DNA of 64,000 nt from Candidatus Scatovivens sp. GTDB taxonomy: Bacteria > Bacillota > Clostridia > TANB77 > CAG-508. The translations under genes and the position numbers were made by a program. Positions 47,442 to 53,853 of the stretch are shown here, piece by piece (the stretch's first letter is position 1; each line of letters opens with the position of its first letter). Location: the NCBI GenBank assembly GCA_045646345.1, contig JAZRKN010000001.1, positions 224,001-288,000 on the forward strand, given 5' to 3'. The notes beneath the pieces were generated by a model that saw only the letters and a program-made list of their open reading frames with translations, did not search any database and was not told the DNA's origin.

Positions 47442-49643
47442 TTATTCTGAAATTATTTTTTTTATAAATTCCCATGTTTCTTGCATTGATTTTATAGAAA
47501 CTCTTTCTTTTGGACTATGTGCATCATATGCGTCTGCTCCAATACAAACATATTCCAAATCCTTAATTTTATATTTAAAAAATCCACCTTCTACAACACC
47601 TTGTGAAATTTTAAGTTCGATATCTTTATCAAAATTTTCTTTATATATTCTAGCACATTTTTTCACAAGTGATGATTCGTAATCGGGTTCAATACCTTTT
47701 AGTTCTTGTTGCCAAACTATTTTTATATCATTTTCATTTTCAATTTTCTTTAAATTATCCAAATAACAATCTCTTAATTTTAAATCATTAGCTCTTAAAG
47801 AATATTCGAATCTAACACAGCTTTCATCTTCTCTTATTGCTGCCATATTAGCAGATAAAATAACATTATTATTTTCATCATATTCTATTGCACCATTTAC
47901 AAAAGAATTCACAAAATTTATTATTTTATTGCTAATATCTTTTGAATATACTTTCGAATTTTCCTTAGAATCTTGTTGTATTAATTCTATTTTTCCGTCT
48001 TCTCCAAAAAACCTAATTTGTTTATTAACATTTTCTTTTATTTTTTCATATTCATTTTCTAAAGTCCAAAAAACAATTTTAAAATCTCTAGGTATTACAT
48101 TTACTCTGCTACCTCCACCAAGTGATTGAATATATACATTATCTATTTTAGAAATAACTTCAATACCTAACTTTATTGGATTTCCTCTTTTTACATCCCC
48201 AATATTCCCTCCTGAGTGTCCACCCAAAAATTCTGAATATCTTAGTTCATATTTTACTAAATTATTATTTTCTAATTTTATTTTCTCTGCTTCAATTTCT
48301 CCAAACCATTCCATACAATTTGCGGAACTTATAACCATTTTTCCTTGTTTTCCATTATCAAGAGAAATTATTTTCTTAGTTTTTATTTGTTTTTCATCAA
48401 TTTTTATAGCACCGATCATTGTAGTTTCTTCTTCTGTTGTAAATATACATTCTATACTTGGTCCCTTAATCTTATTTGAATCTAAAATTGCAAGCATATA
48501 TGCAACACCAACTCCATTATCTGCCCCTAAAGTTGTACCATTTGCTTTTATAAAATCACCATCTTGATACAATTTAATCGGGTCTTTTGAAAAATCATGT
48601 ATACTTCCTTCTACTTTTTCACAAATCATATCTGTATGACCTTGGAAACCAATCATCTCTTTATTTTCAAATCCTGCGGATGCAGTTTTTCTTATAATTA
48701 CATTATTATATTCATCTGTGTAATATTCTAAATTTCTTTTTTTAGCGAATTCTACTAAATAATCTCTTACTTTTTGCTCATTCCCTGACTCTCTTGGAAT
48801 ATCACTTATTTCTTTAAAAAATTTAATTACTTCTTTTGGTTCATTCTCATCTATTACTAATTCTTTCATATTATTTTCCTCATAATTTATATATCTTTTT
48901 AAAAATTCTTTTGTCCTTGATTTTTGTGGTTTCTTTATAACTTTATCTGGTGTACCTTCTTCCACAATTACTCCACCATCCATGAATATAACTCTATCGG
49001 CAACTTCTTCTGCAAATTTAATTTCGTGAGTTACAATCACCATAGTTCTATTTTCCTTTGATAAATTCTTAATTGTTTTTAAAACTTCACCAACAAGTTC
49101 TGGGTCTAAAGCAGAAGTTGGTTCATCCATACAAATTATTTTTGGATTTATTGCTAAAACTCTTGCAATAGAAACTCTTTGTTTTTGTCCTCCTGATAAA
49201 TCACATGGATAAGAATTTGCTTTATCTTTTAGTTCCATTTTTTCTAAAACTTCAGCTGCTCTTTTATCCGCTTCTTCTTTTGACATTTTTAAAACATTTA
49301 CCAAACTTATTGTTATATTCTCTTTTACTGATAAGTGTGGAAACAAATTAAAATCTTGAAATACCATTCCTGTATCTAAATTTATCTTGTTTAAAATATC
49401 TTTATTGTTATAGATAGGTTTGTTATTTTTATATTCTTTTATCATTTCTTTTTCATTTATTATTATATTTCCTGAATTTATTTTTTCTAAATTATTTATG
49501 CATCTTAAAACAGTAGATTTTCCTGAACCAGAAGGTCCTAATATAACTAAAGTTTCCCCTTCTTTAACTGAAAAAGATACATCTTTTATCACTTCTATAT
49601 TTCCATATTTTTTACTTAAATTTCTAACTTCTAAAACATTCAC
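47442..49643 (-). CDS. In-frame fusion: polar amino-acid ABC ATPase (aa 1-258) + PepD-type M20 Xaa-His dipeptidase (from internal ATG 48869)
   Basis: GPSGSGKST, LSGGQKQR, DEPTSALDPE; then IPRESGNE, QGHTDM, TTLGADNG, TEEE, GGHSG, AHSPKE. Confidence 0.88.
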   Translation of the reverse strand: MNVLEVRNLSKKYGNIEVIKDVSFSVKEGETLVILGPSGSGKSTVLRCINNLEKINSGNIIINEKEMIKEYKNNKPIYNNKDILNKINLDTGMVFQDFNLFPHLSVKENITISLVNVLKMSKEEADKRAAEVLEKMELKDKANSYPCDLSGGQKQRVSIARVLAINPKIICMDEPTSALDPELVGEVLKTIKNLSKENRTMVIVTHEIKFAEEVADRVIFMDGGVIVEEGTPDKVIKKPQKSRTKEFLKRYINYEENNMKELVIDENEPKEVIKFFKEISDIPRESGNEQKVRDYLVEFAKKRNLEYYTDEYNNVIIRKTASAGFENKEMIGFQGHTDMICEKVEGSIHDFSKDPIKLYQDGDFIKANGTTLGADNGVGVAYMLAILDSNKIKGPSIECIFTTEEETTMIGAIKIDEKQIKTKKIISLDNGKQGKMVISSANCMEWFGEIEAEKIKLENNNLVKYELRYSEFLGGHSGGNIGDVKRGNPIKLGIEVISKIDNVYIQSLGGGSRVNVIPRDFKIVFWTLENEYEKIKENVNKQIRFFGEDGKIELIQQDSKENSKVYSKDISNKIINFVNSFVNGAIEYDENNNVILSANMAAIREDESCVRFEYSLRANDLKLRDCYLDNLKKIENENDIKIVWQQELKGIEPDYESSLVKKCARIYKENFDKDIELKISQGVVEGGFFKYKIKDLEYVCIGADAYDAHSPKERVSIKSMQETWEFIKKIISE

Positions 49644-49661: not shown

Positions 49662-50312
49662 TTAACTATAATACTCTAATCTTTTTTCTAACCTATTAAA
49701 AATAATTGAAACAAAAAATACTAAAATCAAATAATATCCACCTGCTAAAACTAAAGGAATTATAGAAAAATTATAACTTGCTTGTTTTTGAGCTAAAGCA
49801 AACATTTCTGTAACTCCAATAATTTGTGCAAGTGATGTTGTTTTTAAAAGTGAAATAACTTCATTAGACATTGATGGCAAAATTATTTTTACTACCTGTG
49901 GCAAAGTTATTAAGAAAAAAGTTTGTACTTTATTAAAACCTAATGTATAAGCCGCTTCTTTTTGACCTTCTGGAATACTATTTATCCCACTTCTAAAAAT
50001 TTCTGCAAAATATGCTGCATAATTAATTACAAATGCTATTATTATTGCTAAAAATCTGTCATAACTAATTCCAAACATATAATATGGACAAAAATAAACA
50101 ACAATTATTTGTAACATGATTGGAGTTCCTCTTATTAGTAGAATATATCCTTTAATAAAAAACGTTATTAACTTAAATTTTGAATTTCTTAAAACCGCTA
50201 CTAAAATACCAAGCGGTATTGCAAATATAAATGTTAAAACAAATATTTGAAGAGAAACTCCAATTCCAGAAAACAGTATTTTTGCAACATTTACTGTTTG
50301 CTCTAAATTCAT
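49662..50312 (-). CDS. Polar amino-acid ABC transporter permease
   Basis: IRGTP, AAYFAEIFRSGI...GQKEAA..LG EAA motif. Confidence 0.95.
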   Translation of the reverse strand: MNLEQTVNVAKILFSGIGVSLQIFVLTFIFAIPLGILVAVLRNSKFKLITFFIKGYILLIRGTPIMLQIIVVYFCPYYMFGISYDRFLAIIIAFVINYAAYFAEIFRSGINSIPEGQKEAAYTLGFNKVQTFFLITLPQVVKIILPSMSNEVISLLKTTSLAQIIGVTEMFALAQKQASYNFSIIPLVLAGGYYLILVFFVSIIFNRLEKRLEYYS

Positions 50313-50313
50313 A

Positions 50314-51114
50314 TTACTTCACCTCATTTATAATTATCATATCTTTCCCAAACCATTTGTTGGAAATTTCATCTAATTTTCCTTCTTTATTTAATTTTGT
50401 TAATGCGTTTTCAATTTTATCTTTTAATTCAGTATTTCCTTGTTTAAAAGCTATAACACTTCCGTTTGAAACAGTTATATTTTCAGATGGTACTGTTTCA
50501 TAATCTTTATTCTTTGATGTTATTAAATAATTTCCAATAATATTTGAACAGAATAACGCATCAATCCCTTCTGTTTCTAAATCCATAAATGCTGTTAAAT
50601 TATCTCCATATTGAATTATTTCTACTGTTTTTCCAAATTCAGATTTTTCTAAATCTTGTGCTTGAATTGATCCTGTTTGAACACCAATTTTTTTACCAAT
50701 CAATTCTTCTTGTGATTTTATCTCACTACCATTTTTTAATATAAAATAATTTTCACCTTTTATATAAGGATTTGTTAATGTCATTGTTGCAGCTCTTTCT
50801 TCGTTATATGCAAATCCATTCCAAATACAATCAATGTTTCCAGAACTTAATTCTTGTTCTTTTGAAGCCCAAGATATTGGTTGAAATTTAACTTCCATTC
50901 CTAATTCTTCAGCTACTGCTTTAGCTAAATCTATATCAAATCCCACTATTTCATTGTTCTCATTTCTAAATCCCATTGGTGGAAAACTATCATCTAATCC
51001 AACTACCAATTCGTTTTCTTCATTTGAACTTTCTTGTTTATTCATTCCAACTATTCCAAAAACTATTATTAAAATTACAACTACTGCAATTATTCCTTTT
51101 ACTATATTTTTCAT
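50314..51114 (-). CDS. Amino-acid ABC transporter substrate-binding protein (family 3), probably histidine
   Basis: VGLDDSFPPMGF, GFDIDLA, ISNKWFG; substrate inferred from the His leader. Confidence 0.9.
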   Translation of the reverse strand: MKNIVKGIIAVVVILIIVFGIVGMNKQESSNEENELVVGLDDSFPPMGFRNENNEIVGFDIDLAKAVAEELGMEVKFQPISWASKEQELSSGNIDCIWNGFAYNEERAATMTLTNPYIKGENYFILKNGSEIKSQEELIGKKIGVQTGSIQAQDLEKSEFGKTVEIIQYGDNLTAFMDLETEGIDALFCSNIIGNYLITSKNKDYETVPSENITVSNGSVIAFKQGNTELKDKIENALTKLNKEGKLDEISNKWFGKDMIIINEVK

Positions 51115-51275
51115 ATTAATTACCTCCAATTTTATTTTTTTAATTCTTAACTTTATATATTTTTTTAAATCAAAGTGAGAATTTTAAAAATTCCCTTTCT
51201 TTTTTATTCGAAATTGATTTTATTTTGCGCGCTATTTATAAAATCAATTTTCTTAACTTGTTCTTTTTGGTATAC

Positions 51276-51430
51276 AAAAAGAGCCTTAAAAGTATTCTAG
51301 ATATAATCTAGTACCTTTAAGGCTCTTAAAAACAATAAAGGCACAAGCATCATCAAAAGCCTGTGCCTAATATATTCTAAGACACAAGCTATTTTTTATG
51401 ATGATGTTTGTTACCTTTTACTAAATTCAT
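51276..51430 (-). promoter_or_regulatory. Histidine-sensing leader-peptide transcription attenuator
   Basis: Leader ORF with CAT CAT CAT, complementary TGATGATG segment, alternative hairpins and a U-tailed terminator at 51276-51327. Confidence 0.85.
51389..51430 (-). CDS. Leader peptide MNLVKGNKHHHKK
   Basis: AAAGGAG RBS, ATG 51430, TAG ending at 51389. Confidence 0.85.
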   Translation of the reverse strand: MNLVKGNKHHHKK

Positions 51431-51467
51431 AAAAAATAATTCTCCTTTGATTTTTTTCTATATTAAA

Positions 51468-51496
51468 ATGTTAGCATGATTTTTATAACTTGTCAA
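51468..51496 (-). promoter_or_regulatory. Sigma-A promoter of the His-leader operon
   Basis: TTGACA-17 nt-TAACAT with TG extension. Confidence 0.7.
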
Positions 51497-52043: not shown

Positions 52044-52088
52044 AAAAAACCGAAGGAGTTGGCTCATTTGCCAACTCCTTTTGGTTTT
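52044..52088. terminator. Bidirectional terminator
   Basis: AAGGAGTTGGC-TCATTT-GCCAACTCCTT with A/T flanks. Confidence 0.8.
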
Positions 52089-53853
52089 ATTTTTTTACAT
52101 CTAATTTTATATGAACTTCTCTTAATTGTTTTTCAGTAACTTCTCCTGGTGCCCCCATTAATAAATCTTGTGCTTTTGAGTTCATTGGGAATGCAATAAC
52201 TTCTCTTATTGATTCTTCTCCTGCTAAAAGCATTAATATTCTATCAACACCTGGTGCAATACCAGCATGAGGTGGCGCTCCATAATGAAATGCTTTAAAT
52301 AATGCTGCAAATTTTGTTTTGATATCTTCTTCAGTGTATCCTGCAATTTCAAAAGCTTTAATCATAACTTCTGGATCATGGTTTCTTACTGCACCAGAAG
52401 AAAGTTCTATACCATTACATACAATATCATATTGATATGCATATATATCTAATGGATCTTTTGATTCCAATGCATCTAAACCACCTTGTGGCATTGAAAA
52501 TGGGTTATGACAAAAATCAATTTTTCCACTATCTGTTAATTCATACATTGGAAAATCAACTATCCAACAGAATTTATAAACTGAATCATCTATTAATCCT
52601 TGTCTTTTTCCTATTTCTTTTCTAATTTCTCCAGCTAGTTTTTCGACAATACCTTTATGCTCTGCTATAAAGAATACACTGTCTCCAACTTCTGTTCCAG
52701 TTTGTTTCATAAACTCTTTTCTTGATTCTTCATCAATAAATTTTGCAATCGGACCTTGCCATTCTCCATCTTCTAAGATTTTTATCCAAGCTAATCCTTT
52801 TGCTTTACATTCATCTATTGCAAATTCTGTCATACCATCATAGAAAGATCTTTCTACAGCTGCTCCTTTTGGAAGTGTAATTGTTCTTACTATTTTTCCA
52901 CTAAATACTTTTATATCTATTTTTTCAAAAATACTTGTTACATCTTTTATTTCTAATGGGTTTCTTAAATCTGGTTTATCAGAACCATATTTAAGCATAG
53001 CTTCTTCATATGCTATTCTTGGGAATGGATATTCAGCAACTTTTTTATCAGAAAATTTTGTAAATGTATCATACATAACTTTTTCCATTACTGAAAATAC
53101 ATCTTCTTGTGTAGCAAACGCCATTTCCATATCTAATTGATAGAATTCTCCTGGAGATCTATCTGCTCTTGAATCTTCATCTCTAAAACATGGTGCTATT
53201 TGGAAATATTTATCAACACCAGATACCATTAATAATTGTTTAAATTGTTGTGGTGCTTGTGGAAGCGCATAGAATTTTCCTGGATACATTCTACTTGGTA
53301 CTAAATAATCTCTCGCACCTTCTGGTGATGAACTTGTAAGGATTGGAGTTTGAACTTCTAAAAATCCTTGTTCTATCATTTTTAATCTTAAATATTGAAT
53401 TAATTCAGCTCTTAACTTTAAGTTTTCTAAGTTTTTTCTTTCTCTTAAATCTAAGAATCTATATTCTAGTCTTAAATCTTCTCTAACACTTCTACTTGAT
53501 TCAATTTCAAATGGAAGTTGTTTTGTTCTTTTTCCTAGAATTTCGATTTTATCTGCAAATAATTCTACAGTTCCAGTTTCTAATTTTAAGTTTACTGTTT
53601 CTTCATCTCTTAATCTTACTTTACCAGAAACTGATATTGTAGATTCAGTTGGAATTTTTGAGGCAAATTCAACTTTTTCCTCATCTCCTGAAACTACTAC
53701 TTGAGTTACTCCATATTGATCTCTTAAATCAATAAATAAAACTCCACCTAAATCTCTTATTGTGTCTACCCATCCTGCTAATTTGATTTCTTCTCCTACG
53801 TGTTTTTCACGAATTTCTGAACACTTATATGTTCTGTACTTGTTTCCTTTCAT
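52087..53853 (-). CDS. aspS: Aspartate--tRNA ligase
   Basis: PEGARDYLVPSR, LPQAPQQFKQLLM, CFRDED, GAPPHAGIAPGVDR. Confidence 0.98.
   Translation of the reverse strand: MKGNKYRTYKCSEIREKHVGEEIKLAGWVDTIRDLGGVLFIDLRDQYGVTQVVVSGDEEKVEFASKIPTESTISVSGKVRLRDEETVNLKLETGTVELFADKIEILGKRTKQLPFEIESSRSVREDLRLEYRFLDLRERKNLENLKLRAELIQYLRLKMIEQGFLEVQTPILTSSSPEGARDYLVPSRMYPGKFYALPQAPQQFKQLLMVSGVDKYFQIAPCFRDEDSRADRSPGEFYQLDMEMAFATQEDVFSVMEKVMYDTFTKFSDKKVAEYPFPRIAYEEAMLKYGSDKPDLRNPLEIKDVTSIFEKIDIKVFSGKIVRTITLPKGAAVERSFYDGMTEFAIDECKAKGLAWIKILEDGEWQGPIAKFIDEESRKEFMKQTGTEVGDSVFFIAEHKGIVEKLAGEIRKEIGKRQGLIDDSVYKFCWIVDFPMYELTDSGKIDFCHNPFSMPQGGLDALESKDPLDIYAYQYDIVCNGIELSSGAVRNHDPEVMIKAFEIAGYTEEDIKTKFAALFKAFHYGAPPHAGIAPGVDRILMLLAGEESIREVIAFPMNSKAQDLLMGAPGEVTEKQLREVHIKLDVKK

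Follow-up and report, generated by a model that had tools for sequence, protein, structure and literature searches.

In the enterobacterial his attenuator (hisL), which is described by an A–F segment scheme, a ribosome stalled at His permits two alternative hairpins to form, while a ribosome that reaches the stop codon leads to a protector hairpin and the terminator. Among the Firmicutes, His attenuators have been predicted in the B. cereus group, Peptostreptococcaceae/Lutispora, and Erysipelotrichales, and the 17 that are tabulated by Ashniev et al. 2022 (PMC9413887) are all located on his biosynthesis operons. In bacilli, His leaders are noted before hisZ/hisS paralogues (PMC2965389). Here we describe a leader of this type that precedes a transporter operon, encoded on the minus strand of a 64,000-nt stretch of Candidatus Scatovivens sp. 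genomic DNA (the window, meaning the whole stretch analyzed).

The leader region begins with a σA-type promoter-like site (51468..51496) that consists of TTGACA, 17 nt, TG, and TAACAT and has 10 of 12 matches. Taken alone, this site is not significant (40 such sites compared with 49 in shuffles); TTGACA or TTGACT, read by eye, is found 5′ of all eight related leaders from the family genomes. The site is followed by a Shine-Dalgarno sequence, AAGGAG (51442..51447), and by the leader ORF, MNLVKGNKHHHKK* (51389..51430), the His codons of which occupy 51406–51398. Promoter, ribosome-binding site, and leader peptide on the minus strand had all been named in the preliminary description and were borne out. 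Three near-repeat segments lie between the leader ORF and a U-tailed intrinsic terminator (51276..51327). Segment 1 (51380..51390) overlaps the leader stop codon, and its predicted partner at a His stall is segment 2 (51358..51368), which pairs with segment 3 (51336..51348) when the ribosome is at the stop codon. Segment 3 contributes either to this 2:3 protector or to a 3:4 antiterminator formed with 51319–51311. The 5′ arm of the terminator constitutes segment 4 (51327–51312), the 3′ arm segment 5 (51294–51279), and the U tract extends to 51276. An additional segment 0, comprised of leader codons 4–11, is able to pair with segment 3 if the leader is untranslated. The region 51406–51272 folds with −49.3 kcal/mol (z −7.4), a value equaled by none of 200 shuffles; a simple terminator scan did not list the 51327–51276 terminator. 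Eight short His-rich ORFs preceded by a Shine-Dalgarno sequence were recovered by a scan of the 1.79-Mb genome and, by eye, the repeat-and-terminator layout is present at one of them, this leader. Both MNLVKGNKHHHKK and the terminator behind it are genuine features, and the proposed pairings of the His-codon stretch and segment 1 with downstream sequence, as well as the U-tailed terminator, were confirmed. Rfam gave no match at the leader, the enterobacterial His leader RF00514 included; the best weak hit was aspC, at 24.9 bits compared with a gathering threshold of 100. Membership in the T-box family (RF00230) was rejected, as neither the leader nor the rest of the window has a match; nine T-box matches are located elsewhere in the genome.

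Comparison with hisL (RF00514) reveals the same stall logic, with two alternative hairpins set against a protector plus terminator, but the window RNA differs in lacking an Rfam match, in having two to three His codons, and in that the partner of its His-codon segment is segment 3 instead of the adjacent one. Because the switch logic is that of the Salmonella his attenuator as we understand that system, the mechanism is not new. With the Firmicutes His attenuators, to the extent that they are presented in PMC9413887, the window RNA shares a short tandem-His leader, an attenuator hairpin, a terminator, and the segment order. In contrast to the his operons controlled there, the target here is a transporter plus a dipeptidase in an auxotroph. 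Of the features considered for the type described by Ashniev et al. 2022, kinship in sequence and structure, absence of HisR from the genome, and absence of a T-box at the target were all found; a position ahead of a his biosynthesis operon was not, as the RNA precedes a transporter operon, but it is observed in the relative G061. The window RNA is a member of the His-attenuator family predicted for Firmicutes.

A covariance model constructed from 31 leaders was searched over 150 genomes of the family and 150 of the class, and gave matches in 19 of the 150 family genomes and in one further genome among those of the class. The class-level match (L148, with a rough E value of 0.002) lies ahead of hisZ-hisG; the model that found it was built solely from these leaders, and the L148 leader agrees by eye with the one printed for Lutispora thermophila (PMC9413887). 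The gene hisD is present in one of 151 family genomes, G061, and the same RNA precedes that his operon, the G061 leader itself being part of the training set. This attenuator-led operon (L125:4775–12400, on G061:C62) is the only his biosynthesis operon among the 151 genomes and likely represents a horizontal gain or a lone retention. New targets behind the attenuator were genes for HisS, for His-racemase-like proteins, for ArgE-like deacylases, and for GNAT proteins, along with a single membrane-protein gene that has no annotation. At four loci (L144:1736–2536, L135, L146, and L140), the attenuator is located before genes whose best resemblance is to the histidine racemases HisR and CntK, with an E value of 1e-23 and scores well short of the family cut-offs, and racemase-like genes under the His attenuator are often followed by an ArgE-like deacylase gene; together these are candidates for D-His or N-acyl-His salvage. 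In L137/L154 (G059:C83) and L140/L155 (G045:C39), an attenuator-led hisS-like gene is joined in frame with a racemase-like domain, giving a 691-aa product in L154, while the hisS part is shortened in L155. At L132, L139, L141, and L143, in four genomes, two of which are in the genus of the window, the attenuator precedes genes for a GNAT-like acetyltransferase and an ArgE-like deacylase. In L129/L157 (G027:C8), where the next gene, 230 nt away, encodes a membrane protein of 490 aa that NCBIfam does not match, the leader may be orphaned.

A binding protein matching that of the window at E 1e-40 or better is encoded in 8 of 151 family genomes, and the His leader is present in all eight. In a scan of 72 loci from the genome collection, the leader was found before 40 of 41 Clostridia transporter loci, the lone miss having 81 nt of upstream sequence, and at none of the 31 more distant outgroup loci, where a single ORF of 25 aa, judged to be a chance occurrence, was discounted. 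Two of the 41 Clostridia loci are duplicates of genomes fetched earlier and were left out of later counts. The conservation of the His codons across orthologues on which the proposal of attenuation depended is thus observed; the runs are mostly HHH and at times HH or HYH. Moreover, 9–12 nt separate the last His codon from segment 1 in 45 of 45 leaders, wherever the stop codon falls, be it before or past the start of segment 1. By their record titles, the relatives fall among Clostridia of the gut that are uncultured, Candidatus Scatovivens and Clostridium sp. CAG:452 being examples, and the operon has a patchy distribution, being present in 12 of 301 genomes across two families of the order.

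The genomic context is that of a probable His auxotroph, as the preliminary description had supposed. Searches for hisG, hisB, and hisD in five genomes (93–98% complete) found none of the three, with positive controls at 14 of 14 for these enzymes, and the TrpR/HisR family was found in none of the five. For the hisA/F family, matches in the genome of the window were weak and partial, and the ORF of such a match, which by eye resembles a dihydrouridine synthase, was rejected. An Opp/Dpp-type binding protein is present; no yuiF-type domain was found, and no free-His route was identified in this genome. Two aspS-like genes are present, one in the window (52087–53853) and a second, inferred from similar sequence, at about 16–17 kb of G000:C5.

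Downstream of the leader, on the minus strand, are a family-3 solute-binding protein of 266 aa (50314..51114), a polar amino-acid ABC permease of 216 aa (49662..50312), and a 733-aa protein (47442..49643) in which an ABC ATPase (about residues 1–255) is joined in frame to a PepD-family dipeptidase that starts at Met259. The three genes and the fused ORF are therefore as the preliminary description had listed them. The downstream gene lysS, which has its own promoter-like site and is found downstream in only eight scanned loci, was not counted as an operon member. At L011/L034 (G109:C8), the permease ORF stops after about 127 codons and is seemingly broken, with the ATPase::PepD fusion intact.

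The closest natural solved relative of the binding protein is 4OHN, a structure titled as His bound (Z 25.2, rmsd 4.2, 229 residues aligned, 36% identity). The window protein shares the family-3 fold of HisX/HisJ and, in alignment with E. coli HisJ, keeps the equivalents of Asp11 and Arg77. In contrast to HisJ, and to 4OHN, which keeps both residues, it carries Ala in place of Ser72 and Ser in place of Asp161, and thus lacks both residues of the α-amine lock. These two residues lock the α-amine in HisJ/LAO, and opine-binding NocT, with Gly97 and Ser207 at those sites, binds Nα-substituted Arg and not Arg, His, or Orn, according to the account in PMC4192606. NocT therefore has both losses, which open the α-amino site to an N-substituent, but it is about 22% identical and not close kin, its ligand is an Arg opine, and the parallel is one of analogy. 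OccJ, which has no Asp at this site, still binds free Arg, weakly, as described in PMC5740067.

The loss of the two clamps coincides with pepD. Among 75 binding proteins, all 37 that are pepD linked contain Ala/Gly72 and Ser/Gly161, whereas Ser/Thr72 and Asp161 are retained in every one of the 28 relatives without pepD, four of which lie behind the same His leader; the remaining 10, on cut contigs, fall outside both classes. The pepD-linked proteins form one clade in a quick tree (SH-aLRT 100), and the link between pocket and pepD is therefore one event, not 37. Among 80 metagenome loci, 49 of which have at least 2 kb downstream, 72 keep both clamps, seven are without one, and one, which has the leader and pepD, is without both. 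Of the 96 single-domain representatives among the best 150 matches, 86 keep both clamps and three are without both. A double pocket loss is seen in P0131 and P0155. An order-wide search for an independent double-loss lineage returned in-clade loci only. One pepD match near a protein with a normal pocket (L188) was discarded, as the ORF list holds no pepD ORF there.

The dipeptidase part of the fusion scores 386 bits compared with the 343.75-bit cut-off of TIGR01893 and is 28% identical to E. coli PepD. Like other PepD/β-Ala-His dipeptidases (TIGR01893, M20; PDB 2QYV and 3MRU), it has intact metal, catalytic, and lid motifs, the catalytic and metal residues compared being those named in the description of PepD in PMC6271292, but unlike them it is joined in frame to an ABC ATPase. 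Among the 120 homologues listed, 115 are full-length fusions, a number that rules out an assembly artifact, and in the matches listed each ATPase and PepD motif is intact in 111–115 of the 115. Judged by this recurrence, the ATPase::PepD fusion is real. The pepD-linked loci comprise 19 fused and 18 split examples, and all of the fused loci fall in one 25-row subclade along with three split and three cut rows. In many linkers, that of the window among them, the former pepD start still has its SD-like sequence and initiation codon (GAGGA and ATG, 48881–48867 in the window, minus strand), which points to stop-codon loss as the likely origin of the fusion; this inner start may continue to yield free PepD. 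In L023, the ATPase stop codon abuts the pepD start directly, in frame. The fused PepD is the only PepD in the genome of the window, and across the family, where 18 of 151 genomes encode one, the enzyme is accessory. In the open-access literature, we found no paper on an ATPase::PepD fusion, on a family-3 His-dipeptide importer, or on a test of these attenuators.

Since both α-amino clamps are lost, as in NocT, and since the His nitrogen is acylated in an Xaa-His dipeptide, we infer that the ligand of the binding protein is probably an N-substituted His, i.e., Xaa-His dipeptides. The importer would bind the N-substituted His and the fused PepD would free histidine. The reading that we favor, and consider somewhat better than even, is that the His attenuator turns on a three-gene importer of Xaa-His dipeptides, from which His is released by the ATPase-fused PepD. 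The role in His-dipeptide uptake and hydrolysis put forward in the preliminary description gains support from the clamp loss and from its distribution between pepD-linked and pepD-less proteins. An unlikely alternative is that the same attenuator controls an ordinary, HisXYZ*-like importer of free His, with pepD as a co-regulated add-on for peptides that enter through Opp/Dpp. That the closest natural solved relative, 4OHN, binds His, that a pepD-less sister clade combines the same leader with a normal pocket, that an Opp/Dpp-type protein is present, and that an auxotroph with no yuiF-type domain found needs free His would all suit such an importer, but it is difficult to reconcile with the absence of both α-amine clamps from every pepD-linked protein when most representatives and metagenome relatives keep both.

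A narrower form of the favored reading, that the operon is specific for carnosine/anserine (β-Ala-His), is likewise improbable. Carnosine is cleaved by the PepD family according to PMC6271292, and TIGR01893 is named for β-Ala-His dipeptidase. An open α-amino pocket suits an acylated His, and ordinary peptides already have the Opp/Dpp route; however, the E. coli enzyme is annotated as a dipeptidase without specificity, and no sequence feature points to β-alanine. Furthermore, close relatives come from sheep rectum, roe deer cecum, and rabbit, hosts without dietary carnosine. It is less probable still that the pocket binds another N-substituted ligand, such as dipeptides in general, N-acyl-His, or some other N-acylated amino acid, and that His control reflects only the limiting auxotrophy. 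The presence of the same attenuator before ArgE-like deacylase, GNAT acetyltransferase, and His-racemase-like genes in relatives would fit this possibility, but the half of the pocket that receives the side chain agrees with that of His-bound 4OHN, and the partner enzyme is a dipeptidase with carboxylate-binding lid motifs.

For the Xaa-His importer that we favor, control by the leader would operate as follows. When His is plentiful, the ribosome would reach the stop codon and cover segment 1, giving the 2:3 protector and the 4:5 terminator. When His is short, the ribosome would stall 9–12 nt ahead of segment 1 and leave it free, such that 1:2 forms; segment 3 would then take the top of the terminator 5′ arm while the 3′ arm has yet to be transcribed, resulting in read-through. 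The RNA left free by the ribosome at each codon was folded, cut just past the terminator 5′ arm, with an assumed ribosome footprint of 13 nt. In these foldings, the window RNA forms 1:2 plus 3:4 at the His stall (P about 0.8–0.9) and 2:3 plus the terminator with the ribosome at the stop codon. With the 13-nt footprint and 42 distinct leaders, the 3:4 probability exceeds 0.5 in 40 when the ribosome is at the His codons, in 12 when it is one codon past the last His, and in 1 when it is at the stop codon; in the two pepD-less leaders of this set, 3:4 reaches only 0.24–0.48. Footprints of 12–14 nt give switching at the last His in 36–40 of the 42 leaders, while a footprint of 15 nt does so in 13, with 39–40 switching at earlier His codons. 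In silico, then, the antiterminator is exclusive with the terminator and is set by the position of the ribosome, and a stall at any upstream codon also antiterminates. The untranslated state is mixed, with 3:4 still above 0.5 in 16 of 44 leaders, and shut-off is thus partly supported. Once the terminator is transcribed in full, it prevails in equilibrium folding (P 0.96), stalled states included, and the read-through model therefore requires kinetic trapping. In three RNA runs, the shares were below 0.1, with contigs only and no cover of the leader.

The preliminary description had called for the leader fold and its covariation to be checked across orthologues. Helix 1:2 is 94.7% paired, and 4 of its 11 pairs are changed on both sides, compared with 0 of 500 shuffles and at most 52% in slid controls, a covariation statistic that is inflated by the relatedness of the sequences. 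Helix 2:3 is conserved yet mostly invariant and displays little covariation. Pair-count scoring covers these two helices; MAFFT misaligned the terminators of the two leader variants. The 3:4 duplex, the sequence of which differs between the two variants, reaches −7 kcal/mol or lower in 31 of 31 leaders (median −14.5). Collectively, we infer that the leader and its terminator very probably constitute a ribosome-stalling transcription attenuator; stalling at the His codons, as first proposed, is supported by their conservation and by the occurrence of the same RNA before a his operon and hisS. The antiterminator first proposed, in which a ribosome stalled over segment 1 frees the end of segment 2 to pair with the base of the terminator 5′ arm (AGGCUUUU with AAGAGCCU), is wrong, for while the pairing is possible in the window as an isolated duplex (−10.2 kcal/mol), its probability is 0.0 in every ribosome state folded for the window and at most 0.05 in 44 leaders, it reaches −7 kcal/mol or lower in 8 of 31 leaders (median −2.1) compared with all 31 for 3:4, and a His-stalled ribosome stops short of segment 1, which if covered would give 2:3 and the terminator; any such pairing is extremely improbable, and a relay of 1:2 and then 3:4 is predicted in its place.

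Between the terminator and the first gene lies an AU-rich stem-loop (51211..51250, minus strand) with a self-complementary GC hexamer (51232–51227) in its loop. An AU-rich stem with a self-complementary GC-rich loop hexamer is present in 31 of 46 leaders, compared with 0.8 expected from shuffles, and is absent from variant-B leaders. Five of the 31 loop hairpins count as long perfect palindromes. The leaders contain five different loop palindromes, and GCGCGC is found once in the genome of the window. By analogy with kissing loops, one might guess at selection on loop self-complementarity and hence at a possible dimer site. Another hairpin whose loop is a GC palindrome lies between rplA and rplJ (G000:C15:288314), where it reads as a U-tailed terminator.

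What is new here is the pepD-linked clamp loss; the attenuator type itself had already been predicted in Firmicutes, as the table of PMC9413887 attests. As the mechanism is classical and the RNA family was already predicted, the switch alone is of modest interest. A broader picture, which we offer tentatively, is that a His-binding protein became a His-dipeptide receptor, possibly for host carnosine/anserine, by loss of its clamps, that a dipeptidase tethered to the ATPase cuts the cargo at entry, that the attenuator runs a His-salvage regulon that includes the His-racemase-like and deacylase genes, and that the mRNA carries a kissing-loop hairpin. The attenuator marks genes as histidine-salvage genes in bacteria that have not yet been grown, and it points to a candidate family-3 binding protein for His dipeptides, an ATPase-peptidase fusion, and candidate His racemases and deacylases. 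The set of helices 1:2, 2:3, 3:4, and 4:5 provides a precise, mutable model for the Firmicutes His attenuators, which are presented as predictions in the work cited here. If carnosine is the ligand, the operon would give gut bacteria a defined means of consuming a dipeptide of the host.
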